From Naegleria gruberi (lineage: Eukaryota), in assembly GCA_000004985.1 (NCBI GenBank), contig GG738902.1: DNA of 64,000 nt, one strand, 5' to 3'. Of the stretch, positions 3,094-52,549 are shown piece by piece (position 1 is the first letter of the stretch; every line of letters starts with the position of its first letter). The notes beneath the pieces are model-generated. The model saw only the letters and a program-made list of their open reading frames with translations, did not search any database and had not been told where the DNA came from. The translations under genes were made by a program, and so were the position numbers.

Positions 3094-6000
3094 TTATAAT
3101 TCATCTAATTTTTCTAAAACTTGTTCTGCATTTAATCTTTCATCTGGATCTCTTTTAACCATATTTAAAATTAAATTAATAAAATTTTCATCATATTGAA
3201 TATTATTTTCTGAAGAATTTTTAGCAATTTTTTCACGTAAAGTAGTAAATAATTTCTTTTCATCACCCATAAATTTCATAACTAAACCAGTGATTGAAGT
3301 ATTCATATCTAATGACATTAATTGATAAAAAGTAACACCTAATGCAAATATATCAGATGCATGTGCATGTTTACGTAAAGTTTCTTGATCATTTTGATCA
3401 TCTTGATCATCTTGTTCTTCTTCTGACATACCTTGTTGCATCATGAATAATTCAGGTGACATGTATTGTAATGTACCTGCAAATGAAGCACTACTTGCAG
3501 AATCACCAACTGATTTAGCTAAACCAAAATCTCCTAATACAATATCTAATTCATTATTTTCTAAATTCATTGATCTAATCATTATATTATGTGGTTTAAT
3601 ATCACGATGTACCATTTGTTTTTCTTCATATAAATATAATAATGCTTCACACATACATCTTAATGATGTTTTTAAAATTTCACAAGAGAGACAAATCTTT
3701 TTTTTTAAAATCTTTTCTGCCAAATCACCACATGGTATAAATTCCATTTCAATACACATTGTATTTTTATCATTCAATGATCCTGATGTACCCATTTGTA
3801 ATACATAGGCATCATGAACTTTTAATACATTTTCATGTTGTAATCCACATAATCTAAATGCTTCTCTTAATGATCTATTCAATTCATCTGTAGATACAAA
3901 TTCAATCAATTTAACTGCTCTTGTTTGTGGTGGTGCATTCTTTTTTTTTATAATTTTATCACATTTAAATACTGCTCCAAATCCACCTCTACCTAATAAT
4001 GATATATTACTATACTTTTCTTGCATTAATTCTTCAATAGTTTTGGTTTTTTGTGTAAATGATGTCATTGTACTATTATTATTACCACCACTTGAACTAT
4101 TACTATTGGTACTTCTTTTACTTGAATAGGTTGATATTTCATCCATTGGAAAATCTGATACACTATGATCAATGGAACGTACCATTGAATTTGTCATTAC
4201 AAATGATGAATCACCTCCACCACCTGATCCACTTGAAAATGAATCAAATGATTGTTGTTTGTTATTATTAAAACTATTATTCATATTATTATTCATATTA
4301 TTATTATTGAAACTATTAACACTCATATTATTATTATTAAAACTATTATTATTATTATTAGATGTAATACTCATATTATTATTATAATTGAAACTATTAT
4401 TATTAACACTGTTAGTACTCATAAATGCATTAGGATCAACTGTTACTACATTAGTACCTTGTCTCATTGATACATCTTCAACAATTGGTTGTTGAACTGG
4501 TTGTACAATAGGTTGTTGTTGAACTGATTGAATAATAGGTTGTTGTTGAACAATAGGTTGTTGTTGAATAATTGGATGTTGTACAACAGTTGGAACATTA
4601 CTATTATACATTGTATCATAAACAACACCTTGTTGTGCTGAAACTACAATTGGTTGTTGTTGTACTGATGATTGTAAAGTAATAGTATTATTATTATTAT
4701 TATTAATAGTATTATTATTATTAATTGTATTATTATTATTAATTGAATTATTATTATTATTAATTATTGGATTAAATAAAGGAGGTATATTTGTAAATAA
4801 ATCATTAATAATAAAATCCAAATCAATACCTTCAAATTTAGCTCTATTAAAAGCATTAAAATTAGAATCATCTAAAGCATTAACATTTGCACCTCTTTTT
4901 AATAATAATCTAATAATATTTAAATGTTTTTTAGAAATTGCAGCATGAAGTGGAGTGATTAAATGTTGAATTGATTTTTCCAAATTACATTCATTAAAAG
5001 ATAATAACCATTCAACACTTTTTAAATTACCATCACATACACATGAATATAAAGCAGTTAAATTATTTGAATCATATTCATTTAAAACGTATGGATATTT
5101 TTGTAATAATTGAATTGATTTTTTAAAATCTGATTTTCTAATAGAAATGATAAAATCATCAATTCTATTTAATTTTTTAAATTTAATACGATCTTGTATT
5201 AATTTTAAATCTAATTGTGAAAATTGTGATCTTGAATAACAATCAAAACCATCAATATCTTTTAAAGTTAAATCAGCACCATTTTCAATTAAAATTTCAG
5301 TTATAATTTCCATTTTTTGTGTAATTGCTAATGCACATGGTGTTATATTATCAACACATGGTTTGTTAATATTAACATTATTTTCAATTAAAAATAATAA
5401 AGCATTTAAATTTTGATCACTTGTAACACAATATAATGCATTAAAATTATTAGATGAAAATGAATCAATAACATCTCTACGTTGTTTTAATATTTGTAAT
5501 GCTCTTTCAAAATTATTCTTTCTAACACATAATACAAATTCATCTACCAATGTATTAAATATATTTGAACATTCTTTAATATGTGTAATTAAATCAACAT
5601 TATATCTATTTGCTAATTGAAATATTGTTAAATTTTGTATTACTTGTGATGTATCTGCTCCACATTCTAATAATGCTCTAATTGATAATTCTTTTTTTTG
5701 TGAAACTGCTACAAATAAAGGTGTAAATCCTTGTTGAATTGGATGTGATGGATTACTACCTTCTGATACTAACCATTTTATAGCATCTGGTTTATTATCA
5801 TACGCAACACAATACATTGCTGTAAATTGTTGACTTCCAATTTCATCTATTACATTTCCAAAATAGGCTTTTTTGGATTTTTCAATTATTTTACTAGCTG
5901 ATTTATACTTTTCAGTTCTAACTGATAATATTAATTTATCTACCATTTCAATTTTACATTCTTTAATCAATTCTTCAATTTTATCATCTATTTTTATATA

Positions 6001-6600
6001 TTTTAAATTTGCTCCTCTTTTAATTAAATATTTAATTATTTTTATATTTTCCTTTTCAATTGATACTTGTAAACAAGTCCACCATTGTCCTTCTCCTAAT
6101 AATTGATCTATTTTTATATTACTTTCTTTAATTAATAATTTTACAATTTCTAAATCTCCATTAAAACATGCATAATAAAGTGGTGACTTTATATTATTAT
6201 GATGATTATGTTATTGTGATAATAGATTTGTTATGATTATGTTATGATTATTATGATGGTAATGATTATATATTTGTTATGATAGTTATGATTATGAAAA
6301 TAGTTAGATTGTATAGAGTTAGATTTATATTGTTATATAAATATAAACATACCAACTGTGTTATTATTATTATTCAATATTGTTCAATACCATCATCATC
6401 ATGAGATCAACAACAATAATTATTAATAAAAATAAAAAACAACAACAATAATAACAACATACAAATCTTGAATCAAGAACATTAACATCAACACCTGGTA
6501 ATTTTAAAGCATCTCTAACACCATTAACATTTCTATTAATTGTATTCATCAATAAAGCGGAACTAGCTTCATTAATAACAGGTGTTGTAACGATTGCCAT
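3094..6600 (-). CDS. Ankyrin-repeat protein kinase of about 1077 aa. Exons join(3094..6186, 6463..6600). Asn/Gln-rich linker.
   Basis: C-terminal kinase domain motifs GRGGFGAV, VAVK-like K, HRDIKPHN, DFGLAK. N-terminal ankyrin repeats (SPLYYACFNGDLEIVKLLI..., TPLHAAISKKHLNIIRLLLKRGANVN). The first exon (MAIVTT...DSRF) ends at a GTATGT donor; the 276-bp intron is made of degenerate tandem repeats. Confidence 0.75.
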
Positions 6601-6849
6601 TTTTTTTTAATCAAGTTCATTACCAGCAACAACAAACCTTTTCAAAACATGAGAGATGATGGAAAGAGACATGAATGTTATCTACAGTACTTTTTAACGA
6701 GAGAAATATTTATGAACAGTTATATCTCCATCAAATGTCTCAGGTTCACTAAAAACTGTATGATAATATTACAAAGGTTTGATGATTTGTCCAATTTTGT
6801 TTGCCATGTTATGTTATTTCAATGTATTAAGGTAATGACTACCATATAA

Positions 6850-9120
6850 CAATGAATACACCTCATCCCGTCCGATTTGAGAAGTTAATCATCGCTAGCC
6901 ACATTATGAATTGAGGTTGGAGACAAATTGGGAACTTGTGGTGTTGTCGTCTTAAATTTTTCCTTATCTCCTTATTAAACGAATTACATAATCATCAATT
7001 CATCCTTATAATAAGCAAGAATAAAAAGAATATATAAAAAAGATGAGTTGCAAACAACTCTGTCATTGAATATCCAAATCTTTATCGCATTATTTAACAC
7101 AACCTTGCTCAAATCCAGATATCTGTTGCCAGAGACAAGAAATCATTATGCTGCATTAACCAACCTTTCCAGAATGACATTGAATATCCAATCTGCAACT
7201 CTTTTTATTTGACTTGAATTTGTAGCTAAATCAATGAAATCAGTACAAAATCCTAACACAGCACTTATTAAAATTCATTAACCCATCAACATAGCAACTT
7301 TGGATTACGATAACAATAATTGTTGTTTAACCACGTTATGAATATATTGAACAGGGCTAGTAGTGACAACGTATGAAACACCATAGCTTAAGATATACTT
7401 ATCATGAATTGTTAGTGTTTTAAATGATGGTGCTTACTAACATATAATACTGTACTGATGCAGTAATCACAATTACATGATGTCTTCAAGTTAAACGGAA
7501 TTTCTTTCGTGCGTTCATTTGTGTTTAGTGTAACATACACATCTATACCTCAAGTGTATCGTAAGATTATCAATAGCACATTCAATATTTTGAACATACA
7601 CCACCGTTGTTTCAACAATTACTTTGATTTAGCAATAAATGTCTAGATATACAATACTTACGTATTTTCCTTTCTACTATGGTATCAACACAAAAGTCCT
7701 GCTTGCGAACTCAAGTATCTAAAATATTTAACAATTTTCAAGTCGTTACGTAGGCTTCATCTTTCATTGTTTAGTCTTGGCCGCTTTGTTTTCCGCATCT
7801 TGGTGAAATAAACATTGATTTGAATTTAGAATTGGTGTTCTAATTTTAAGTAATCACTCTACTCTAATAATTTACCAAGCCTTTTGTAAAGCACCATAAT
7901 TCTTATGGAAAAATGTGAACATCAAAAGAGACCATCATTATGAATATATTGTAACACGTGAACATTTCAACCAATAATTGAACAATCATTTTCAAAGCTT
8001 TTTCAAAATCTACTTTTACATCTATGAAACATGAATGATTCAACTGTTCCAAAATATTCTAGAAAGTATTTAAACTGATATTGTTCAGTATCAGTCTTTG
8101 TTATATCACGTCTTTACTTGCTAAAAAACCATAAGTGTACACACCAAGATTTAGAGTGGTAAAGAAACCACCTTGCATATTGAATTTCCATTGAGTCACA
8201 AACTTTCAAATTTGGTTTTACAATGAGAGGTCAATTTGGTAATTTTTCTATTAATGATAATGAGCTCATTGAAACTATTTTCATTGGAATAGAAGGTTCA
8301 GAGGCTTTTCCCTCTACAACCTTGTTGAGTAAACTCTCATACTCCTTCACAAAGACATTGAAATACTATTACCATTCAATTCACTTGGAACTACATCAAG
8401 TAAGGAAAGCTTACAAATAAATTCTCTACCCTTGTCTTTACACCATTTTGGAATCAAAGTTTTCCTACTTGACGACGACAACACAATAAACTTTTGTAAA
8501 AACTGAAAATCATGACCACATTAAGAATCTCAAGATAAACTTTTCTTGCTTCAACTTGTTTCCTTTTTTTTCGTTGTGATTCCTCTCCTTGATTTAAACT
8601 TCATGAGGATTTAAGTTTATAATTATCTCGTCTTATTTTTTCTTCTTCTTTTAAAAGCTTAAGGAGACTAACTCAACAGAAAAAAGAAGCGAGAAATAGT
8701 TCTAAAATTCCTCATCAACAAATTCATCTGATTGTGACCCCCACGGTGGGCGATTCCTTTTGGCATTTTCTGGCTTTTGATGAAAGAATCTGATTTTCAA
8801 TATCGTTTGTTTGAATATATTTTAATCATAGGTTTCCAATCTATCTCAATAGTAACAGGATTTCTCTTGTCAATTGTTTTTGCATCCCCAAACAATATCA
8901 TTGATAGGTTTCTTTCCATTCTTCTTTTCTGAACTAGTTGATACTATATGACCATCTCTCTCTCAATTATCTTAACAGGTCTTTTGTGAAATTGTTTGAA
9001 CACAATTATAATATTGTTATAGAATAGATGCCATTTTCTTAAAACTAGTTTTCTAATAAATTAGTAAAATACTCATTTCCCGTCAATGTTTCATTTAACA
9101 CACAATAAAAAAAATACTCT
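6850..9120. other. About 2.3 kb ORF-poor island with different composition (higher GC, no Asn-codon bias). No intact ORF longer than 65 aa. It contains a 26-bp copy of the tRNA-Lys 3' end.
   Basis: No long ORFs on either strand. The base composition differs visibly from flanking AT-rich coding DNA. Short local direct and inverted repeats are present, for example cattgaatatccaa(a)tc at 7063 and 7178, flanked by gagttgca ... tgcaactc. Confidence 0.3.
8736..8761 (+). repeat. Exact 26-bp direct repeat of the tRNA-Lys 3' end (16 nt) plus its 10-nt 3' flank including the TTTT tract. The second copy is at 10181..10206.
   Basis: gacccccacggtgggcgattcctttt is identical at 8736..8761 and 10181..10206. 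The sequence diverges immediately on both sides. Confidence 0.8.
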
Positions 9121-9149
9121 ACTACCACAGCCATCATCATATCATCATC

Positions 9150-9986
9150 ATGATGTCATGTTATCGTTATCTATTATTTAATCATAATAATAGTAAATCA
9201 TCATCATTATCATCTACAACAACAATAAAATTATATCATCATCAACATTTAAATAAACAACAATATAATAATACAATATTATTTCTACTTCCAATACTAT
9301 TAATATTATTATTATTTATACAATCATCATTATCTATTAATTCTATTAATTTAAATAATTTAAATAATTTAAATAATTCTAATAATTCATCATTAAATAA
9401 TTCAACATTTGAATGTGTATCATTACCAAATTTAAAAAGTTCAAAATGTGGATATATAGGATTTAATGTATCAATAAATTCAAGTTTAACATTTGAACAA
9501 GTAGAAATGGAAATTGAAAATGAATATAATAATTTATTTAAATATTTAGAAAATAAAATTAGTAAAAATATAAGTAAATTTGATAATGAATGTAATTCAA
9601 CAATATTAAATTATATATGTTCATCTACTTATCAAAGATGTAAAAATTCTAATACAAGATATGATGTATGTGATAGTATTTGTAGAAATTTATTTTCTAA
9701 TTGTATTTCATTATCTTTATATGAATATCAAAATGATATTGATAATGAAGGTTATATTTATTGGATTGAAAGAGAATTTTGTGGTAAACCTACTAAACCT
9801 TTACATCCTGTACCACCTCTATGTACTAATATTTTAGATCAAACTCAACAATTAATTGTTTTAATTTCTTTAATTATTTTATTATGTTTTTTAATTTTAA
9901 TCATTTTATTAGGTGGTTTTATGAGTTTTTGTTATTATAAAAAACATGCAAATTCTGATAAAAAATATAATATTTTAAAAAATTAA
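9150..9986 (+). CDS. Cysteine-rich type-I membrane or secreted protein, possibly with a Frizzled-CRD-like cysteine pattern. It has an N-terminal hydrophobic segment and a C-terminal TM helix.
   Basis: A hydrophobic signal-like stretch LFLLPILLILLLFIQS. Ten or more spaced Cys residues (CVSLP...C...C...CSSTYQRC...CDSIC...C). A C-terminal TM segment LIVLISLIILLCFLILIILL followed by a basic tail. Confidence 0.4.
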   Translation: MMSCYRYLLFNHNNSKSSSLSSTTTIKLYHHQHLNKQQYNNTILFLLPILLILLLFIQSSLSINSINLNNLNNLNNSNNSSLNNSTFECVSLPNLKSSKCGYIGFNVSINSSLTFEQVEMEIENEYNNLFKYLENKISKNISKFDNECNSTILNYICSSTYQRCKNSNTRYDVCDSICRNLFSNCISLSLYEYQNDIDNEGYIYWIEREFCGKPTKPLHPVPPLCTNILDQTQQLIVLISLIILLCFLILIILLGGFMSFCYYKKHANSDKKYNILKN

Positions 9987-10123
9987 TATTTTTGAAATAA
10001 AATTTAAATTATTAATTATTAATTATTTTAAATTGAGTTTTGAGATAAAATTTTGTTTCACTTGCTTATTACTAGTTTCTTTATCCTTAATGATGACTAA
10101 GGGATGATTATTAAATCAAACGT

Positions 10124-10196
10124 GGCCCGTCTAGCTCAGTCGGTAGAGCGCAAGGCTCTTAACCTTGTGGTCGTGGGTTCGACCCCCACGGTGGGC
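10124..10196 (+). tRNA. tRNA-Lys with anticodon CUU.
   Basis: Cloverleaf built by hand. The 7-bp acceptor stem GCCCGTC/GGTGGGC has G-U pairs. D arm TAGCTCAGTCGGTAGAGC. Anticodon stem CAAGG/CCTTG with loop CTCTTAA, giving anticodon CTT. T arm GTGGG-TTCGACC-CCCAC with internal A and B boxes. It is nearly identical to the eukaryotic tRNA-Lys(CUU) consensus. Confidence 0.9.
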
Positions 10197-10202
10197 GATT
10201 CC

Positions 10203-10206
10203 TTTT
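10203..10206 (+). terminator. Pol III terminator T-run 6 nt downstream of the tRNA-Lys 3' end.
   Basis: TTTT lies immediately after the discriminator base plus ATTCC. Confidence 0.5.
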
Positions 10207-42221: not shown

Positions 42222-45200
42222 ATGCCAGCCAGACCAAAACGAAACGTTAAAAAGAAGGTTTTTGAAGAAGAACCTGTTTCGGAGGAGGAAGAAGTGGTTG
42301 ATGAAAAAGATGACCAAATGGATACTTCGGATGCGGAAGAAGCAGCACCTCCTAAAAAAACAACAAAAAGGAGAACTCCTGCTAGAAGATCTCGTGCTAA
42401 AAAGGATGAAGATGAAGAAGAACAACAAGAATCTTCTGAGGAAGAAGAAGAAGAAGAAGAAGAAGATAATGATAAAAGTGGAAATTATCGTGGAGAAGGT
42501 GAGGAATCATCATCTGAAGAAGAGAGTGAAGAACCACAAGAAAAGTACCAATTTATTTCGGAACAAACAAGTAAACATTTAGAGAAAATCAGAAAGGAAC
42601 AAAAATCTCTTCTTAACAGATTAAAAGAGAAACAAAAGAAAGAACTAGTTGGTATTGAAGATCCACAAGAAAAAGTTAAAGTGACATTTAGACATTTGTT
42701 GGAACAAACAGAAATTTACTCTAGTTTCACTCCAAATTTATCTATGCATACAATTATTGATGGAACTTCATCTTCAAAGAAAGGAGGATCTAGAAGAAAA
42801 CACTCTGAAAAGGAAGAGGATGAAGAAATTATTCGTGAAGCCTTGGAGGATGAAGAAGAAAGTTATCAAGGTGTTTTACTTACATCATCACCAAAATTTA
42901 TTGAAAATACTACATTGAGAAGTTATCAAATTGATGGTGTAAATTGGATGATTAGACTTCATGATAGAGGTGTAAATGGAATTTTAGCTGATGAAATGGG
43001 TCTTGGTAAAACTGTACAAACTCTTACTTGGATTGCTTATTTGAAATTTATTAGAAGAATTCGTGGTCCTCACTTGGTTATTGTACCAAAAAGTGTTATT
43101 CCTAACTGGGTAAATCAGGCTAATCAGTGGTGCCCATCTCTACAAGTTCTTAAATTCCACGGAGACAAGGATCAAAGAAGAGAAATCAAGGAAAAATCAC
43201 TTGTTGGAGGAAAATTTGAAATTGTTGTAACTTCATATGAAACAGCTATCAAGGAAAAGGCAGCTTTAAACAAATTTAGATGGTATAGTATTATCATCGA
43301 TGAAGCTCACCGTATTAAGAATGAAAATTCTATCCTTTCACAATCAGTTAGAGTTTTTGATTGCCAATATAGATTATTATTAACAGGTACTCCACTCCAA
43401 AATAACCTTCACGAATTATGGAGTTTACTTAACTTTTTATTGCCAGATGTTTTCCGTTCAGCAGATGATTTTGATACATGGTTTAACTTGAAGGAAGGTC
43501 AGGCTGAAACTCATATTATTGATCAATTGCACAAAGTTTTAAAACCTTTCCTTTTGAGAAGATTGAAAACTGAAGTTAAAACTGATATTCCTCCTAAGAA
43601 GGAAATTTATGTAGAATGTGGTTTATCTAAACTTCAAAAAGAATGGTATCGTAGTATTCTTACAAAGGATTTGAACTCTATCAAGGGTGGTGAAAAAGTT
43701 AGACTTTTAAACGTTGTTATGCAACTTAGAAAGTGTTGCAACCATCCATACTTGTTTGATGGTGCTGAACCAGGTCCACCATATACTCTAGGTGATCACT
43801 TAATGAATAACTCTGGTAAAATGTATCTAGTTGATAAACTATTGAAGAAGTTGAAGGAACAAAACTCTAGAGTATTAATCTTTACTCAAATGACAAGAAT
43901 GTTGGACATTTTAGAAGATTATTGTTATTTAAGAAATTATGAATATTGTAGAATAGATGGTCAAACATCAAGCGAATTGCGTGAACAACATATGGATGAA
44001 TTTAATAAGGAAGGAAGTTCAAAGTTTATCTTCTTGTTGTCGACACGTGCTGGTGGTTTGGGTATTAACCTTGCTACAGCAGATACTGTTATTATTTATG
44101 ACAGTGATTGGAATCCTCAAGCTGACTTGCAAGCTCAAGACAGATGTCACAGAATTGGTCAAAAGAAACCTGTGAATGTGTATAGATTAATTTCCAAAGA
44201 CTCTATAGAAGAAAAGATTTACCAAAGAGCTGTTAAGAAACTTTATTTGGATGCTGTGGTTATCCAACAAGGTAGACTTGCTGAACAAAATAATAAGCTT
44301 TCAAAGACTGAATTGATGTCTATGATCAAGTTTGGTGCTGAAGAAGTTTTTAAGAGCACAGAATCAACTATTACAGATGAAGATCTTGATGCTATTTTAT
44401 CACGTGGTGAACAAAAGATTCAAGAAATCGATCAACAATATAAGAATATCTGCCAAAACAATTTGCTAAACTTCTCATTGACAAATGAAAATAATTTGTA
44501 TGAATTTGAAGGTCTAGATTATTCAAAGAAGGCAACTACAATGATTGTCATTGAAGAAATTCCTGAAACTTTAACAGAAGATGTAATTGTAAAAGAAATT
44601 GGAGATGAAGAACAACTTTTGGATGAAGTTATAATTTCTCATGAAAAGAAGAGTTGTATTCTTTATTTCGACACAAAGAGTGCTTCTGCAAAGTCTTTAG
44701 AAAAACTTGTCTCTAAAAATTATAAGGCCAAATTCTGTAAAAAGAATGATAAATTTATTCTCCAACTCGAAGAAGAGGCCCTTAAGGAAGAATCTCAAAC
44801 TGTTAGAAGTGAAAGATTGGGAAGAAGAAACAAGCAAACAGAACAACAAATTGCTATTGAAGAAGCTCAGCAAAAACGTGGTCCAAAAGAACCAAAATAT
44901 TATGATTTCCAATTCTTGAACACTAAGAGATTGTTAGAACTTTGGGAAAAGGAAACCCAATTTGAACAAGAAAAGAAAAAGAGAAAAAAGAATAAGGATA
45001 GTGATGAAAAAGAAGATGAAGAAGCAGGAGAACTTACCAAAGAAGAAAAGTCTGAAAAGAGAAAACTTCTCCTTGAAGGATTTAATAATTGGAGCAAGAA
45101 GGATTTCCAAAGCTTTATCAAGGGTTGTGAAAAATTCGGAAGAAAGGACTATGCAAATATTGCAGTAGAAGTCGAAAAAACTGAACAACAAATTAAGAAG

Positions 45201-45674
45201 TATTCTAATGTATTTTGGAAGAGATATAAGGAAATTAAAGATTATGACAAGTTGATCAAGAGAATAGAAAGAGGAGAATCTCAGTTACAAAAAATTGATA
45301 ATAATAATTTAATGTTAAGATATAAGACACAAAAATATATCAATCCTTGGTTAGAAATGAAGTTCAACTATGGTCAAAATCAAGTGAAAGAATTTACTCC
45401 TGAAGAAGATAGTTTTATTTGTTGTATGACTGCAAAATTGGGATATGGATTTTGGGAAGAAGTAAGAGCACAAATCAGAAATGCTTGGGAGTTTAGATTT
45501 GACTGGTTCATTAAAACTAGAACTGCAGTTGAAATTCAAAAGAGATGTGATACTCTCATCAAACTCATTGAAAAGGAATACCAAGATGAGCTTAAAGTCC
45601 AAGAAAAGGAAAAATCCAAGAGAAAATTGGAACCCTCAGCTTCTGGAAATTCAACCAAAAAAGTCAAAAAATAA
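42222..45674 (+). CDS. isw: ISWI-type SNF2 chromatin-remodelling ATPase of 1150 aa. Single exon.
   Basis: Motifs LADEMGLGKT, DEAHRIKN, LLLTGTPLQNNLHELW and QAQDRCHRIGQ. C-terminal HAND-SANT-SLIDE region (FNNWSKKDFQSFIKGCEKFGR..., WEEVRAQIRN). Confidence 0.9.
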   Translation: MPARPKRNVKKKVFEEEPVSEEEEVVDEKDDQMDTSDAEEAAPPKKTTKRRTPARRSRAKKDEDEEEQQESSEEEEEEEEEDNDKSGNYRGEGEESSSEEESEEPQEKYQFISEQTSKHLEKIRKEQKSLLNRLKEKQKKELVGIEDPQEKVKVTFRHLLEQTEIYSSFTPNLSMHTIIDGTSSSKKGGSRRKHSEKEEDEEIIREALEDEEESYQGVLLTSSPKFIENTTLRSYQIDGVNWMIRLHDRGVNGILADEMGLGKTVQTLTWIAYLKFIRRIRGPHLVIVPKSVIPNWVNQANQWCPSLQVLKFHGDKDQRREIKEKSLVGGKFEIVVTSYETAIKEKAALNKFRWYSIIIDEAHRIKNENSILSQSVRVFDCQYRLLLTGTPLQNNLHELWSLLNFLLPDVFRSADDFDTWFNLKEGQAETHIIDQLHKVLKPFLLRRLKTEVKTDIPPKKEIYVECGLSKLQKEWYRSILTKDLNSIKGGEKVRLLNVVMQLRKCCNHPYLFDGAEPGPPYTLGDHLMNNSGKMYLVDKLLKKLKEQNSRVLIFTQMTRMLDILEDYCYLRNYEYCRIDGQTSSELREQHMDEFNKEGSSKFIFLLSTRAGGLGINLATADTVIIYDSDWNPQADLQAQDRCHRIGQKKPVNVYRLISKDSIEEKIYQRAVKKLYLDAVVIQQGRLAEQNNKLSKTELMSMIKFGAEEVFKSTESTITDEDLDAILSRGEQKIQEIDQQYKNICQNNLLNFSLTNENNLYEFEGLDYSKKATTMIVIEEIPETLTEDVIVKEIGDEEQLLDEVIISHEKKSCILYFDTKSASAKSLEKLVSKNYKAKFCKKNDKFILQLEEEALKEESQTVRSERLGRRNKQTEQQIAIEEAQQKRGPKEPKYYDFQFLNTKRLLELWEKETQFEQEKKKRKKNKDSDEKEDEEAGELTKEEKSEKRKLLLEGFNNWSKKDFQSFIKGCEKFGRKDYANIAVEVEKTEQQIKKYSNVFWKRYKEIKDYDKLIKRIERGESQLQKIDNNNLMLRYKTQKYINPWLEMKFNYGQNQVKEFTPEEDSFICCMTAKLGYGFWEEVRAQIRNAWEFRFDWFIKTRTAVEIQKRCDTLIKLIEKEYQDELKVQEKEKSKRKLEPSASGNSTKKVKK

Positions 45675-45688
45675 ACTTGTATATAATA

Positions 45689-46960
45689 TTAGTTTGTACT
45701 TGTAAAGAACTCATCCTCAGATTCATCTGATTGTGTAATAATTTGACTAATCTCTAAGGCATGAAGATCTCTTGATTGAGTCACTAATGTCTTATACGAC
45801 ATGAATACTACCATGAATAGAGTTACAATAATTATTATACATAAAATCAAACTAAAAACAAAATGTAAATCTATCATTAAAATAAAATCATATAATCCAT
45901 GGAAAATTAGTGGTTGATAAATGACATAACAGAAGAAAGATAAATTAATCCAGATTTTTCTCAATGTTGAAGTTCCATTTGCCTGTCTATCTTGATATCT
46001 ACTCTCAATAAATATTGGAACCTCAGTTAAATGTTGAGTTTCCAAACGTATCTTGTATTGAGCAATTCTTAATCCTACAAGACATCCGCTCAATGTATGA
46101 AGTGGAAGAGCAAGTAAAATTCTTCCAATAACTGTCATTGCTCCAAATTGTAAAATTACCATTTGTTGAGAAGCTCCAGAAGTGAGAATATAAATCTTTA
46201 AACAAACTACTAGAATAAATCCAATATTTTCAACTGTAGAAAGTCCAAGAGCCGCCAAAGCACTATAAACCATTGGTGGAAGTGGATGACAATGAGAATG
46301 ATAAAATAACTTCTCTGTTTGATTTTCAAGTTTAAAACATGATGAGAAGAAACTTCCTCCACTTGTTAATTTCAAAGCAAGTAAAGCTTTTGCAACTTCT
46401 TCAACAAGAGATGAAACAAAGAATGATTGTAATACACCAAATAATAATTTCCACACAAAACTCAAATTTTCTAATTGTGTTTCAACTGATTGTATCATTG
46501 ATGATGAATCCACTGTAATAATTTTCAATCCGTGCATAATTGAAATTAATAGTATAGATGCAATAATTTCAAATAAAAAGACAGGTATTACTGATAAAAT
46601 ACCACTCCACAATACATGAAAGGATAATTCTAAATCAATTTTGTTTCTAAACATGAAATAAATAATTAAAAATATTATAATACAAGGAAGAACTCCAATA
46701 AGAAGAAGCAGAGAAATAGCTGGACTAAAAAATAGAGGAATTAAAAGAAGGGAGAGAAGAGGAATAATAGTAAAATAAAGACAAGGTCCTAATTTTTGAT
46801 TCACTAAATCCTGATGAGGTGCCAATGTTGATGGTTCGGAAATGTGATCACCACCAAAACTACCTAATTCTAAATCTTCAGAGTGATCATCTGTATGACT
46901 ATCAGTGTTAGGCATTTTTTTGATGAATTTAATAATAAGTAATGTATATGATGTCATCAT
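45689..46960 (-). CDS. Multi-pass membrane protein, candidate PrsW/CPBP-type intramembrane protease family.
   Basis: About eight TM helices. EEVAK (EExxK-like) sits in a TM and FHGLYD (HxxxD) in a later TM. The assignment is tentative. Confidence 0.45.
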   Translation of the reverse strand: MMTSYTLLIIKFIKKMPNTDSHTDDHSEDLELGSFGGDHISEPSTLAPHQDLVNQKLGPCLYFTIIPLLSLLLIPLFFSPAISLLLLIGVLPCIIIFLIIYFMFRNKIDLELSFHVLWSGILSVIPVFLFEIIASILLISIMHGLKIITVDSSSMIQSVETQLENLSFVWKLLFGVLQSFFVSSLVEEVAKALLALKLTSGGSFFSSCFKLENQTEKLFYHSHCHPLPPMVYSALAALGLSTVENIGFILVVCLKIYILTSGASQQMVILQFGAMTVIGRILLALPLHTLSGCLVGLRIAQYKIRLETQHLTEVPIFIESRYQDRQANGTSTLRKIWINLSFFCYVIYQPLIFHGLYDFILMIDLHFVFSLILCIIIIVTLFMVVFMSYKTLVTQSRDLHALEISQIITQSDESEDEFFTSTN

Positions 46961-48035: not shown

Positions 48036-50063
48036 TTAACAATCAACAATATTCAAACTCTTATCTTCAATAAGAATTTCTTCCTCATCATCTTCCTCTT
48101 CTTCCTCTTCTGTTGTGGAACTGAACAACATTTGCTTTTCAGCCAATCCTTTGTAAATACCATTAGAAATTTCCATGAGCTCATTGTGTGTTCCCTTCTC
48201 TCTCAATTCACCTTTAGCCAATACACAAATTTGATTGCAATCCTTAACAGTTGAAAGTCTGTGAGCAATGCAAATTGAGGTACGTCCTTTCATTAATTTG
48301 TCTAGAGCAGCTTGAACCAATGCTTCTGATTCAGTGTCCAATGCAGAGGTTGCTTCATCCAAGAGTAAAATCTTTGGATCTTGTAATAAGGCACGAGCAA
48401 TGGCAATTCTTTGTTTTTGACCACCTGACAATGAAACACCCTTCTCACCCAACAAGGTATTATATCCTTCTGGCAAATCTGATATGAAACTGTGGCAATT
48501 GGCTGCCTTAGCTGCCTCAACAACTTTTTCCATTGTTGCATTTTCTTCACCGATAGCATAGGCAATATTTCCATAGATTGTTGTTGCAAAAAGTACAGGT
48601 TCTTGAGTTACGATACCTAAACAAGATTTGTGCAACCACATTGGATCGAGCTCAGCAACATCTACATCATCAATGTAAACTTTTCCTTTGGCAGGGTCAT
48701 AAAATCTTTCCAATAAACCAACAATGGTTGATTTACCAGATCCGGATGGACCAACTAATGCAACAGCTTGACCAGATGAAATATCCAATGAGAAATTCTT
48801 CAAAACGGTAACATTTGGACGGGAAGGATAAATAAAATCAACATTTTCAAATCTGACATGACCCTTAATGGTTTCAATTTTTTTACCTCCTTGAATTGGA
48901 ATGGCTCCCTTTCTCTTTAAAACTTTCAAAACAACTCTTTGAGAAACCATGGCTTTAGTATAATCTGGGAAGAATGCAAAAACTTGAATCAAGCCCATTG
49001 TTGAAAACAAAGACAATCCAATAACCTTCATCAAGCTTCCGATGTTCAATTCAGATGAAACTACTAAACCACCACCATACCAGAAGCAAAGTGCAACAGT
49101 TCCCCAAAGAACACCAATCATGACACCAAAGGTGGAGCCTTGTGCTATGGCCTTTCCCACACCTGCCAAGAACTTCTTTTTCAAATCACGTCCATATTTT
49201 TCTCTTTCTTTTTCTTCACCTGCCATTCCTCTTACAGTTCTCATTGAACTCAAAACTTCTGTAAACATGGCTGCACTGTGGTCATTGGATTTGTTAATCA
49301 TTGTAGTTAATTTACGAATAATACCTCCCAACACAAAAACACCAAATATCATGATTGGAGTGGTTGAAATCATTACAAGTGTGAGTTTCCAAGATGAAGA
49401 CATGGACAATGAGAAACCAATTGCAAATTGAGCAATACTTGTAACAAAGGTTGAAATTCTGGTTGTGTAAATTTCCTGAACTTTTGTACAATCCTCATAG
49501 AGAGTATTAGTAACAGCACCAACTTTCTTAACATCAAAATAGCCCATTTCTTGATCTGTCAATGCATCAAAATAAGCAGTTCTCAATGCAATACCAATTC
49601 TTTCACTTGCATAATTCAAGAAAAAGTTGGATAAAAGAGAGGCAACAGCTGCACCAGCTGCAATTCCAGCAAACTCACTGGCATAAACACTCACTTGGGA
49701 TTTCTTTTCAGCTGTTGTCATGGTTGTTGAGGCAAAAACTGTAATGACATCACCCATTATAAATTGAAACATGAGAGGAATGATACCACTACCTGCACTT
49801 CCAATCATACCAATTAAAATTAAAAGCCAATTCCAACCAATAATCTTATAAATTGTGAATGCATCTTTGAAGGATGGTTTAGGTTCTCTAAGGTCAACCA
49901 TTTCAATCTCAGAGGATGATATCTGCTCACCAGCCTCCTTATTATTATGTTTCTTGAAAGGATTTCTGCTTTGTCTTCTTGTATTTTCAGTCTTTTCCAT
50001 CTTTACATCCCCAACCTGAATCGTTGTTTGTGAAGATGGTTTCTTAATCTCTTGTTCGCTCAT
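48036..50063 (-). CDS. ABCB-family half-transporter (TMD-NBD), 675 aa, single exon.
   Basis: Six TM helices followed by an NBD with Walker A GPSGSGKST, signature LSGGQKQR and Walker B ILLLDEATSALD. Confidence 0.85.
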   Translation of the reverse strand: MSEQEIKKPSSQTTIQVGDVKMEKTENTRRQSRNPFKKHNNKEAGEQISSSEIEMVDLREPKPSFKDAFTIYKIIGWNWLLILIGMIGSAGSGIIPLMFQFIMGDVITVFASTTMTTAEKKSQVSVYASEFAGIAAGAAVASLLSNFFLNYASERIGIALRTAYFDALTDQEMGYFDVKKVGAVTNTLYEDCTKVQEIYTTRISTFVTSIAQFAIGFSLSMSSSWKLTLVMISTTPIMIFGVFVLGGIIRKLTTMINKSNDHSAAMFTEVLSSMRTVRGMAGEEKEREKYGRDLKKKFLAGVGKAIAQGSTFGVMIGVLWGTVALCFWYGGGLVVSSELNIGSLMKVIGLSLFSTMGLIQVFAFFPDYTKAMVSQRVVLKVLKRKGAIPIQGGKKIETIKGHVRFENVDFIYPSRPNVTVLKNFSLDISSGQAVALVGPSGSGKSTIVGLLERFYDPAKGKVYIDDVDVAELDPMWLHKSCLGIVTQEPVLFATTIYGNIAYAIGEENATMEKVVEAAKAANCHSFISDLPEGYNTLLGEKGVSLSGGQKQRIAIARALLQDPKILLLDEATSALDTESEALVQAALDKLMKGRTSICIAHRLSTVKDCNQICVLAKGELREKGTHNELMEISNGIYKGLAEKQMLFSSTTEEEEEEDDEEEILIEDKSLNIVDC
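48300..48500. repeat. Tract of about 200 bp inside the NBD coding region, about 97% identical including synonymous sites to the reverse complement of 52190..52390 in the paralogous gene.
   Basis: Hand alignment of the reverse complement of 48241..48540 against 52141..52440. There are 60 of 60 identities over one block, 57-58 of 60 in the adjacent blocks, and about 80% identity or less outside. Confidence 0.8.
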
Positions 50064-50528
50064 TTTTTTGTATGTTGTCTATTGAGAGAGTTTGAATGAA
50101 TTTCCAAGCAATATTTATTCGATACAGCAGCACTAAGAAATCATCGCTTTACTAGAGCGCTAACAGCGCAAAACCTCAATGGATAGAGTTGCGCAGAGAT
50201 GGACATTTTGATGTGGATAACGATATTAGAAAACGTATTGAGATCTAATTCCATCAACCGGTGTAGAAAAGGAGCAACGACAGCGAACTATTTAATTTAA
50301 TGACTTTTTCGTGATCGATATGCTCTTATAGCGCAATGGAATATGTTGCGTACTAAGAAGTGGTGATGGTTTTATTAACATACAACAACCATCGACATGT
50401 TTAATAATAACAACTCCTCTCAGCACTGCTCGGCATTATTATTTAAGAAGAACCAAGAGAGACAAATACAAATATTCAAAAAAAACAACTCAACACTAAT
50501 CACAATTTTTTCATATACAATTCAGAAA
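50064..50528. promoter_or_regulatory. Shared divergent (bidirectional) promoter region between the two head-to-head ABCB half-transporter genes.
   Basis: The start codons are at 50063 (minus) and 50529 (plus) with no ORF in between. Confidence 0.4.
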
Positions 50529-52549
50529 ATGACTGAAACACATGCATTGGATTATCAGATAGAGATTAAGGATGACAAGCCTACCGATCACAAATTAGAT
50601 ATAGATGCACTTACACCAAGAGATGAGAAGGCAACTAATCCAGCTGCATTATCTAGAAACCCATTCAAGAGAAGAAGACAGAAGAGAAAATTGAATGCAT
50701 TGGAGAAGATGAAAGACGAAATTCCAGATCCAAGAGAACCAAAAATTGGATTCAAAGATCACTTGATTCTACTGAAATTAATTGGTTTCAAGAATTGGGT
50801 ATTGATCTTTTTTGCAACTGTTGGTGCTGGAGGTGCAGGTGTTATTGGTTTATGCTTTCAATTTATTTTGGGAGATTTGATTAATAGTTTGGCAACCATC
50901 ATGTCAGATTCAAATGCATTGAGAGATGAAGTTAATTCAATTGCTGGAAAATTTGCTATTGTTGCTCTGGGTGCTGTGATTGCAAACTTTATGAATCAAT
51001 TCTTTAATACTTTGGCTTCAGAGACAATCAGTAGAACATTGAGACAGAAATATTTTGAATCATTGACAGCTCAAGAAATGGCATTCTTCGATATTAAGAA
51101 AGTTGGTCAACTGGCCTGCATTTCCAGTGATGATGTTGCCATTGTTCAAGAAATTTACACTTCCAAATGGTCAACCTTCTTCCAACAAGTAGTTCAAGTA
51201 GTGGTTGGTCTCATTCTCGCATTCATCAGCTCTTGGAAGATGTCTCTCGTCATCATTTCAACAAGTCCAATTATCTTTGTTTTGATTTGTGGTGTTTCAC
51301 AAGGTATCAAGAAGTTGTCAAAGAAAACATCAGAAGCAAATGAACATGCATCTGCAATTGCAACTGAAATTGTTTCATCAATTAAGACCGTAAGATCAAT
51401 GGGTGGAGAGCCAAAGGAAAGAATTAGATATAGAAATGATTTGAAGAAAGTTCACAAGTATGGTTTATTCAAGTCCATTCTTCAGGGATTCGTTTTCTTC
51501 GTTTTGAGTTTCACCATTTGGGGGACTGTTGCATTGGCCTTTTGGGTAAGTTTTATTATTTATTGCATTTCTAATTATCTTTCGAATAGTTTGGAGGTAA
51601 TTTAACCGTAGACGGTGAGATTAGTATCGGAAGCATGTTTAGAGTCTTTGGTTTATCATTGATGGCTGTCATGGCTTTATCAAATGCTGGTACCTTCTTT
51701 ACAGAATATGCCAAAGCCATTCAAAGTCAAACTTCGTTATTGAAGGTAATTAGAAGAGTTCCTGAAATTCCATTCAAGGGTGGTAAAACAATTGAAAATC
51801 TCAAAGGTGATATCTCTATTAAGAATATTGATTTTATCTATCCAGCCAGACCAAACACCACGGTATTGAAGAGCTTTAGTTTGGAAATCAAAACTGGTCA
51901 AGCTGTTGCATTTGTTGGTCCATCTGGATCTGGTAAATCAACCATTGTTGGATTAATTGAAAGATTTTACAATCCAGTTAAGGGTAACATTTCGATTGAT
52001 GGTGTTGATATTTCAGAATTGGACCCAATGTGGCTTCACCAAGTTGTTGGTATTGTAAACCAAGAACCAACCCTTTTTGCTTGCTCAATCAGAGATAACA
52101 TTACGTATGCTTGTAGAAGACCTGTCTCTCAAGAAGAAGTTGAAGAAGCTGCCAAAGCTGCCAATTGCCATAGTTTCATTTCAGATTTGCCAGAAGGATA
52201 TACCACCTTGTTGGGTGAGAAGGGTGTTTCATTGTCAGGCGGTCAAAAACAAAGAATTGCCATTGCTCGTGCCTTATTACAAGATCCAAAGATTTTACTC
52301 TTGGATGAAGCAACCTCTGCATTGGACACTGAATCAGAAACATTGGTTCAAGCTGCTCTCGACAAATTAATGAAGGGAAGAACAACCATTTGTATCGCTC
52401 ACAGACTTTCAACTGTTAAAAACTCAGACATGCTGTGTGTTCTTTCTAAGGGAGTTCTCGTTGAGCAAGGAAAACATGAAGAATTGATTCAAATTCCAGA
52501 TGGTGTATATAAGAAGTTAGCCGAGAAGCAAATGATGTTTGCTCACTAA
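50529..52549 (+). CDS. ABCB-family half-transporter, paralog of 48036..50063. Exons approximately join(50529..51545, 51590..52549) with a 44-bp GTAAGT...AG intron. Coordinates are ±1.
   Basis: It has the same TMD-NBD architecture. The intron removes an in-frame stop and restores ...LAFW|FGGNLTVDGEISIGSMF..., matching FWYGGGLVVSSELNIGSLM in the paralog. The ORF-track start at 50397 lies in the probable leader. Confidence 0.8.
52190..52390. repeat. Inverted partner of 48300..48500, the near-identical NBD tract.
   Basis: See 48300..48500. Confidence 0.8.

Follow-up and report, generated by a model that had tools for sequence, protein, structure and literature searches.

Why does the 3′ end of a tRNA gene recur inside a long gene-free stretch of a Naegleria gruberi contig? 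In a 64-kb window (the whole stretch of DNA that we analysed, 64,000 nucleotides of contig GG738902.1), 26 nt spanning the end of a tRNA-Lys(CUU) gene and its trailer appear a second time, without a single change, in the spacer between two divergent genes. The original prediction proposed three readings of this arrangement: a decayed tRNA-targeted retroelement, a rearrangement or target-site duplication that copied the tRNA end, and a non-coding RNA locus. Taken as a whole, the locus is best explained, with the balance of probability leaning slightly that way, as unusually long but otherwise ordinary intergenic DNA that holds two unrelated Pol III gene relics.

A long spacer between two divergent genes

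The spacer and its neighbours have the following coordinates in the window.

3094..6600, minus strand: ankyrin-repeat protein kinase gene, with its ATG at 6600; left boundary of the spacer
6601..9149, no strand: ORF-free spacer, bounded by the two divergent genes
9150..9986, plus strand: ORF for a membrane protein with an Fz (frizzled-type cysteine-rich) domain, lying between the two 26-mers

Length sets the spacer apart. The two divergent genes are separated by 2.5 kb, whereas such distances elsewhere in the window reach at most 0.78 kb, and the ORF-free stretch of 2,888 bp is 3.7 times as long as the next (775 bp), so the unusual length claimed at the outset is borne out. The limits first proposed, 6850..9120, are too narrow: the spacer runs from 6601 to 9149, and the ORF listing places a probable first exon of the kinase gene at 6370-6600. 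Each of the six frames carries 50-67 stop codons per ~866 codons. Codon log-likelihood is below zero in every frame, compared with +15 to +27 in the flanking genes, and both the lack of ORFs and the lack of the local codon bias hold as originally described. A decayed protein gene was also considered, and six-frame translation, Pfam and codon log-likelihood gave no signal of one.

The spacer is not the compositionally distinct island that it was taken to be. Its GC content (0.305-0.308) lies within the range of 17 other ORF-free stretches (0.21 to 0.37), pooled GC for all ORF-free DNA in the window, island included, is 0.288, and the 4-mer profile of the island is unremarkable. The spacer is higher in GC only relative to the very AT-rich neighbouring ORFs; relative to other ORF-free DNA it is not.

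Both genes at the spacer's edges belong to the host. In its kinase part, the left-hand gene matches a predicted protein of N. gruberi at 100% identity, and an ISWI ORF elsewhere in the window matches N. gruberi at 95% and N. fowleri at 86%. The Fz ORF shares 45% and 39% identity with Fz-domain proteins of N. fowleri and N. lovaniensis, gives a weak Pfam Fz match and has a codon log-likelihood of +9 to +18; it is an ordinary host gene and not the cargo of a mobile element. At the Fz loci of N. fowleri and N. lovaniensis, only the Fz gene is held in common, and neither a tRNA nor a 5S gene is present. Contigs of related Naegleria at the kinase locus likewise share the kinase alone. Because neither side of the kinase is conserved there, this comparison is uninformative for the spacer. 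Spacer DNA has no similarity in the related Naegleria contigs, a weak test given that synteny is absent on both sides.

The 5S copy and the tRNA-Lys block

Sequences related to two kinds of Pol III gene lie in or near the spacer.

6834..6952, plus strand: diverged copy of the 5S rRNA gene, matching Rfam RF00001 at full length
6957..6961, plus strand: T5 run, 5 nt past the 5S-like gene and resembling a Pol III terminator
8736..8761, plus strand: solo 26-nt copy, an exact match to 10181-10206
10125..10197, plus strand: intact tRNA-Lys(CUU) gene, found by ARAGORN and scoring 66.4 bits against the Rfam tRNA model
10181..10206, plus strand: native 26-mer, made of the last 17 nt of tRNA-Lys and the trailer ATTCCTTTT

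The left edge of the spacer holds a recognizable 5S sequence that the original prediction overlooked. It scores 66.4 bits against RF00001 (model positions 1-120; gathering score 38) with 8 non-canonical pairs flagged, and its minimum free energy fold differs from the canonical one (z -1.5). N. gruberi has 279 published 5S loci (PMC3369914). The window most likely corresponds to scaffold_58:1-64000, and our copy appears to be one of them already, entry R32615 at scaffold_58:6842-6947, which is listed with a similarity of 0.65 versus 0.75 for the commonest 117-nt entries (Table S1, PMC3369914). It resembles the rest of the N. gruberi 5S family in its full-length Rfam match followed by a T-run, and differs in ranking among the most diverged entries and in its non-canonical pairs. 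Judged by these sequence features, it is probably a pseudogene or variant 5S and not a working gene.

The second relic is a block of 26 nt. Its sequence, GACCCCCACGGTGGGCGATTCCTTTT, occurs exactly twice on the plus strand, at the two positions first reported, and a search of the window allowing 3 mismatches returns no further match. The original prediction divided it into 16 nt of tRNA and a 10-nt flank; the division is in fact 17 nt of tRNA (G57 to G73) and the 9-nt trailer, which ends in the T4 run at 10203-10206, the presumed Pol III terminator of tRNA-Lys. Shuffled sequences are expected to yield no 26-mer duplicates, and the best match of any other island 26-mer to the rest of the window is at most 23/26, as it is for 6.7 kb of control intergenic DNA; a chance match is negligible, as had been argued. 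The copies lie 1,445 bp apart in cis and in the same orientation, with the solo copy upstream of the intact tRNA, which is the sole tRNA in the window. Outside the block, identity between the two sites drops to 14/56 upstream and 19/56 downstream, and no local alignment beside it does better than shuffles. The base after T4 is G in the solo copy and A at the source. The intact tRNA-Lys(CUU) gene at 10125-10197 is either the source of the block or a paralogue of that source.

The solo copy contains no A box and lacks most of the B box, and because it has no internal promoter the block is inert. A tRNA-like fold around it was judged by eye and rejected: upstream there is nothing for its T-stem or acceptor-stem strands to pair with. 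Metagenome scans gave 0 matches to the 26-mer, and a 31-nt pattern from the tRNA 3′ end picked up a single tRNA-Lys, unrelated and followed by another trailer. On its right, the block stops precisely where the T-run does, a position that an RNA template (pre-tRNA) predicts and a DNA template does not.

Two further features adjoin the solo copy.

8711..8736, plus strand: 26 nt abutting the solo copy, with a 23/26 match to 45710-45735
8727..8734, plus strand: first copy of the 8-mer ATCTGATT, with a second copy at 8789-8796

One nucleotide separates the 8-mer from the start of the block, and the second copy follows 27 nt past its end. The pair thereby flanks a 54-nt segment (8735-8788) made of the 26-mer, 26 further nt and one extra base at each end. 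A comparable repeat is found at 1.1% of island positions. The pair could be a short target repeat or a microhomology repeat, a possible and weak reading of a feature noticed post hoc. The abutting 26 nt overlap the solo copy by 1 nt and are the sole other island 26-mer that matches elsewhere in the window at 23/26 or better. In control intergenic DNA, one match of at least this quality turns up per ~1.35 kb, and the patch, also noticed post hoc, is a weak hint of a second templated insertion or else a coincidence. The idea that the whole spacer is a mosaic of ~26-nt patches was set aside: it has one abutting 23/26 match to its name, at a frequency that chance can explain.

How the block may have arisen

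A templated insertion best accounts for the block. Patches templated elsewhere in the genome and inserted at sites of break repair are a described class (PMC5110952), and the block is what such an event would leave: a short, exact, sharp-edged copy from the same chromosome that bears no transposon hallmarks. It resembles class 2 TSIPs and insertions of the polymerase-theta type in these respects, and perhaps also in the possible microhomology and the second abutting patch. It differs from them in that its right edge coincides with a Pol III terminator; copying from DNA alone would not call for this. We infer two separate and independent events. In the older, a 5S rRNA gene copy would have come to lie at 6834-6952 and later diverged. 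In the younger, 26 nt comprising the tRNA-Lys(CUU) 3′ end, its trailer and its terminator would have been copied from 1.4 kb downstream. A broken or stalled DNA end may have used nearby sequence in cis as its template for a brief time, or double-strand-break repair may have captured a short patch; a mobile element would have played no part in the origin of the block. The relics would differ in age because the 5S copy is strongly diverged and the 26-mer unchanged.

Mobile elements and functional RNA account poorly for the locus. The suggestion of a decayed tRNA-targeting retroelement (TRE, DGLT-A or similar), or its footprint, drew on a long ORF-free stretch near a tRNA gene with a tRNA-derived block inside, and odd DNA near a tRNA gene is all that the locus shares with dictyostelid TRE5, TRE3 and DGLT-A. 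Dictyostelid elements insert at a fixed distance from tRNA genes, ~50 bp upstream or ~100 bp downstream. Here ~1 kb, including an 837-bp host ORF, lies between the end of the spacer (9149) and the start of the tRNA (10125), and the host is N. gruberi, no dictyostelid, as the identical kinase sequence attests. The spacer has no coding signal and no remnant of reverse transcriptase, integrase or gag: a six-frame scan finds no Pfam domain, with nothing relevant at E≤10. No LTR-like or terminal repeats were found in it, and the 64-kb window holds no second copy, in a genome whose transposon content is very low. We consider the retroelement reading extremely improbable. Equally improbable is the idea that the 26-mers are a target-site or attachment-site duplication around an inserted segment (8762-10180, 1.4 kb, with the Fz ORF). 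Exact direct repeats do bracket that segment, and integrase-mediated islands, with their attL and attR, are classically recognized by a duplicated tRNA 3′ end. In such islands, however, the intact tRNA comes first, the island lies downstream and the partial copy sits at the far end, whereas here the order is reversed: the partial copy shares the strand of the intact tRNA and precedes it by 1.4 kb. Before insertion, the site would have consisted of a tRNA end with no head, and the incoming DNA would have had to bring precisely the 56 nt that it lacked. Between the repeats lies one ORF, that of the host-type Fz protein; no integrase or transposase is encoded there, and this is a eukaryotic genome. 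The original notion that a rearrangement duplicated the end of the tRNA gene survives in its broad form; a 26-bp target-site duplication with a 1.4-kb insert founders on the headless empty site. A long functional non-coding RNA in the spacer, in addition to the 5S-like gene, is very unlikely. The length of this intergenic stretch between divergent genes and the folding of positions 8601-8750 (z -3.2) are what speak for it. That z-score lies inside the control range, and there is no excess of folding overall (spacer mean z -0.15/+0.50 versus -0.04/-0.14 in control intergenic DNA). Apart from 5S and tRNA, Rfam gives no match even at E≤10, no telomerase-template-like motif was found in the spacer, and the lack of similarity in related Naegleria contigs counts against it weakly, synteny being absent on both sides. 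What remains of the predicted non-coding RNA locus is the 5S-like gene at its left edge; the remaining ~2.2 kb have neither an Rfam match nor excess folding.

Two other routes to the block deserve more weight. The block may be what remains of a complete tRNA-Lys(CUU) paralogue with the same trailer whose first 56 nt were lost by deletion or insertion. Truncated tDNAs are frequent in eukaryotic genomes, N. gruberi has 924 tDNAs and therefore many copies per isoacceptor, and the solo block retains its own terminator. Like other truncated tRNA fragments and pseudogenes, it is a piece of a tDNA without its internal promoter in a genome rich in tDNAs; unlike a decayed whole gene, it carries its neighbour's exact trailer and has sharp edges. 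An independent gene would need the identical 9-nt trailer, yet the flanks are dissimilar both beyond the T-run and upstream; a recent tandem duplicate would have common flanks, and, unless the trailer were under selection, a 26/26 match would be surprising in an old paralogue. We judge this origin unlikely. A 5′-truncated, reverse-transcribed copy of the primary pre-tRNA-Lys transcript, captured at a chromosome break or made by target-primed reverse transcription, is a minority reading to which we give real if limited weight. The copy stops at the final T of the T4 run, beyond which no Pol III transcript could extend. The nucleus is rich in pre-tRNAs, and N. gruberi, though poor in transposons, carries its many tDNAs and 5S loci. 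Insertions templated by RNA at breaks have also been documented (PMC5110952). The coincidence at the edge is nonetheless a single observation, with a chance of roughly 1-in-20 to 1-in-50. No target-site duplication directly abuts the block, and the candidate 8-mer lies 27 nt past the T-run. Transposon DNA makes up ~0.28% of the genome, and neither the spacer, scanned in six frames, nor the 20 large window ORFs compared with Pfam yielded a reverse-transcriptase domain. The copy also passes A58 and stops at G57, which is no known stop for reverse transcription. If RNA-templated, the block would resemble LINE-mediated chimeric retrocopies of U6, 5S and tRNA in ending at a natural Pol III 3′ end; it differs from them in that poly(A) is absent, target-site duplications do not flank it directly and a source of LINE activity is not evident.

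Pol III gene copies in a transposon-poor genome

The dictyostelid host assumed at first gives way to N. gruberi, the suspected tRNA-targeted mobile element is removed from this locus, and what is recorded in its place is a clean, short copy of a tRNA end beside a decayed 5S copy. The locus matters little alone. The point of possible weight is that the block ends exactly at a Pol III terminator. In the literature examined, we found no explanation for the origin of the hundreds of dispersed tDNA and 5S copies in N. gruberi, and the same RNA-templated process that may have made the block might have helped to spread them. The fullest form of this idea takes the 26-mer as a fossil of pre-tRNA-Lys reverse transcription, the 5S copy as an older product of the same activity, and RNA-mediated copying as the means by which the ~924 tDNAs and 279 5S loci were dispersed; we regard it as quite improbable. 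Were many tRNA and 5S fragments across the genome to end at terminators, they would suggest that Pol III genes spread through RNA copies in this transposon-poor protist.

The tRNA-Lys end and its upstream copy

The end of the window's sole tRNA gene is genuinely duplicated upstream. The 26-mer GACCCCCACGGTGGGCGATTCCTTTT occurs exactly twice, both times on the + strand: at 10181–10206, the terminal part of tRNA-Lys(CTT), and at 8736–8761, a solo copy we call the block. Shuffles predict no copies, and allowing up to three mismatches revealed no third match in the window, so this element of the original prediction stands beyond chance. Any other 26-mer of the spacer around the block finds at best a 23/26 match elsewhere in the window, and 26-mers from 6.7 kb of control intergenic DNA likewise stay at or below 23/26 against the rest of it. 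The features of the locus are:

6601–9149, between two ATGs: spacer proper, with an ankyrin-kinase gene (−) on its left and the Fz-domain ORF (+) on its right
6834–6952, + strand: full-length 5S rRNA match (Rfam 66.4 bits; gathering score 38)
6957–6961, + strand: T5 run after the 5S copy, read from sequence
9150–9986, + strand: ORF for an Fz-domain membrane protein of 278 aa, with clear coding signal and Naegleria homologues
10125–10197, + strand: tRNA-Lys(CTT) gene (ARAGORN; Rfam 66.4 bits)

By counting in the sequence, the block comprises 17 nt of tRNA (T-loop G57 to discriminator G73) and the 9-nt trailer ATTCCTTTT, a correction of the 16 + 10 split proposed before. The trailer's last four bases form a T4 run, presumed to be the Pol III terminator. 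Block edges are sharp, since identity collapses from 26/26 inside to 14/56 on the upstream side and 19/56 on the downstream side, and local alignment of the two copies' flanks gave nothing better than shuffled controls. Lacking an A box and keeping just the tail of a B box, the block cannot work as a gene.

A long spacer of ordinary composition

The spacer is exceptional in length and non-coding, as originally claimed. Each of the six frames carries 50–67 stops per ~866 codons, and log-likelihoods from a codon-usage model of the window's long ORFs stay below zero in all frames across 6600–9100 (flanking genes, +15 to +27). A Pfam search of six-frame translations at E ≤ 10 returned no meaningful match. 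The ORF-free stretch spans 2,888 bp; the 17 others in the window reach 775 bp at most. On the left, 6370–6600 is probably the first exon of the ankyrin-kinase gene (−).

Its supposed compositional distinctness did not survive comparison. Spacer GC (0.305) falls within the 0.21–0.37 of other ORF-free stretches, near pooled ORF-free DNA (0.288, spacer included) and the window mean (0.289), and its 4-mer profile is unremarkable. It looked GC-rich because adjoining ORFs are unusually AT-rich and packed with asparagine runs. In the ORFs of the first 24 kb, 2-kb windows have GC of 0.19–0.26, except 0.28–0.31 around the spacer and at 10–12 kb; three of five intergenic stretches there (0.29–0.31) and most of 24000–64000 (0.29–0.37) lie above these ORFs. 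Long Asn/Gln-rich low-complexity runs fill ORFs of 1–24000, and such AT-rich ORFs also made the window seem Dictyostelium-like.

The window belongs to N. gruberi, so the dictyostelid framework (TRE5, TRE3, DGLT-A) invoked for a decayed tRNA-targeted retroelement does not apply. An ISWI-type ORF (42222–45674) shares 95% identity with a protein of N. gruberi, 86% with one of N. fowleri and 71% with one of Willaertia, and the kinase part of ORF 3094–5970 matches a predicted N. gruberi protein at 100% identity. Homologues of the Fz ORF occur in N. fowleri (45% identity) and N. lovaniensis (39%); the protein database has no entry for it from N. gruberi, so that species' annotation may lack it. The ORF's gene neighbourhood is unlike that of its Naegleria homologues. 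Elsewhere lie head-to-head ABC half-transporter paralogues, at 48036–50063 (−) and 50397–52549 (+), whose sequences repeat in inverted orientation (287 nt at 92%, 48244–48530 / 52133–52419; a second pair of 276 nt at 74%). Two ORFs of 402 and 304 aa make up the right-hand copy, pointing to an intron or a frameshift.

Searches for RNA and repeats within the spacer yielded little beyond the 5S copy. Apart from 5S and the nearby tRNA, Rfam at E ≤ 10 matched no family. Mean folding z-scores on 150-nt windows were −0.15 (+) and +0.50 (−), against −0.04 and −0.14 in 39 intergenic control windows; the lone low-z window (8601–8750, z −3.2) lies inside the control range. No noteworthy repeat, whether internal, terminal or inverted, lies in the spacer; it has no telomere-template-like motif, and the 64-kb window contains it only once. 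Just upstream of the block, 8603–8716 (+) forms an imperfect ~110-nt hairpin of polypyrimidine and polypurine arms (150-nt window z −3.2; 200-nt DNA fold z −1.8; weak MIR6445-like Rfam match, E 0.36). This hairpin may mark a fragile site that made a break likelier, or may be mere chance. Synteny with related species was little informative: Fz and kinase genes were found, but the N. fowleri and N. lovaniensis Fz loci have nothing but that gene in common with the window (no tRNA, no 5S), and related Naegleria contigs with a kinase homologue share just the kinase. One such contig carries tRNA-Thr(AGT) at 8383–8456 (−) just downstream of the kinase homologue, a further Pol III gene beside this family, on the side opposite to the window's arrangement.

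A diverged 5S rRNA copy

The 5S-like gene, absent from the original prediction, was found by Rfam. Its alignment flags eight non-canonical pairs, and its minimum-energy fold departs from the canonical three-way junction (z −1.5). Within the match falls scaffold_58:6842–6947, an entry in a published list of 279 5S loci proposed for N. gruberi, with similarity 0.65 over 106 nt (commonest entries, 117 nt and 0.75; PMC3369914, Table S1). The copy thus appears to be catalogued already, and the window is very probably scaffold_58:1–64000 of the NEG-M assembly. Judged by pairing, fold and similarity, it ranks among the most diverged family members and is probably a pseudogene or inactive variant. A canonical copy lies at scaffold_58:73271, ~9 kb past the window end, and many listed loci are loosely clustered at irregular spacings of 1.1–5 kb (scaffold_41 297689/300171/303199; scaffold_12 420559/422722/426513; PMC3369914, Table S1). 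That study offers no explanation for their spread.

Origin and meaning of the block

We favour a DNA-templated insertion over RNA capture or a tRNA stump. On this view a template 1.4 kb away in cis would have been copied into a short patch, either in the course of break repair or when replication switched templates; we prefer it mainly because such insertions typically draw on nearby cis sequence of like orientation. The sharp edges and the lack of any reverse-transcription or transposon hallmark suit this origin, though they do not distinguish it from RNA capture at a break. One point does speak for an RNA template: a Pol III transcript reaches no further than the terminator's last T, and the copy stops exactly there, as a captured or retroposed 3′ end of a pre-tRNA transcript would. 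We think it improbable that this exact stop at the terminator records RNA-mediated copying of Pol III transcripts. The other remaining choice, that the block is what is left of a second tRNA-Lys gene, requires a paralogue with an identical trailer yet no common sequence beyond it. Repaired breaks are known to carry templated patches, some of them derived from RNA (PMC5110952). Two observations, both noticed post hoc, hint weakly at patch repair. A 54-nt segment, which opens with the 26-mer and includes one extra base at each end, lies between two copies of the 8-mer ATCTGATT; repeats so placed occur at ~1% of spacer positions. The adjoining 26 nt (8711–8736), ending at and overlapping the block's first base (1 nt), match 45710–45735 at 23/26, including an exact 15-mer; chance gives such matches about once per 1.35 kb. 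The distant site lies 36–61 nt beyond the ISWI stop codon (+), within the 3′ end of a convergent PrsW-like gene.

Readings that join the parts into one element were rejected. A 26-bp target duplication around 8762–10180, the bracketed insert of the original prediction, is logically untenable: before insertion, the site would have carried a tRNA end with no head, and the inserted DNA would have needed to bring, at its own end, exactly the 56 nt of tRNA that were missing. Integrase-type islands place the intact tRNA first and the partial copy downstream, whereas here the partial copy lies upstream, and the segment between the 26-mers encodes just a host-type Fz protein. Nor do the 5S copy and block form one element: the former is heavily diverged and the latter identical at 26/26, so the two relics would differ in age.

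What remains is a long spacer of ordinary composition that holds a diverged copy of 5S and a small templated duplicate of a tRNA end. With ~924 tDNAs (PMC2888827), 279 5S loci (PMC3369914) and recognisable transposon DNA at ~0.28% (bioRxiv 10.64898/2026.06.24.734286), stray or decayed pieces of Pol III genes are to be expected in N. gruberi intergenic DNA. Sequence relics of these kinds are already known; the only reading that would, if true, have wider reach is the copying of Pol III transcripts through RNA.
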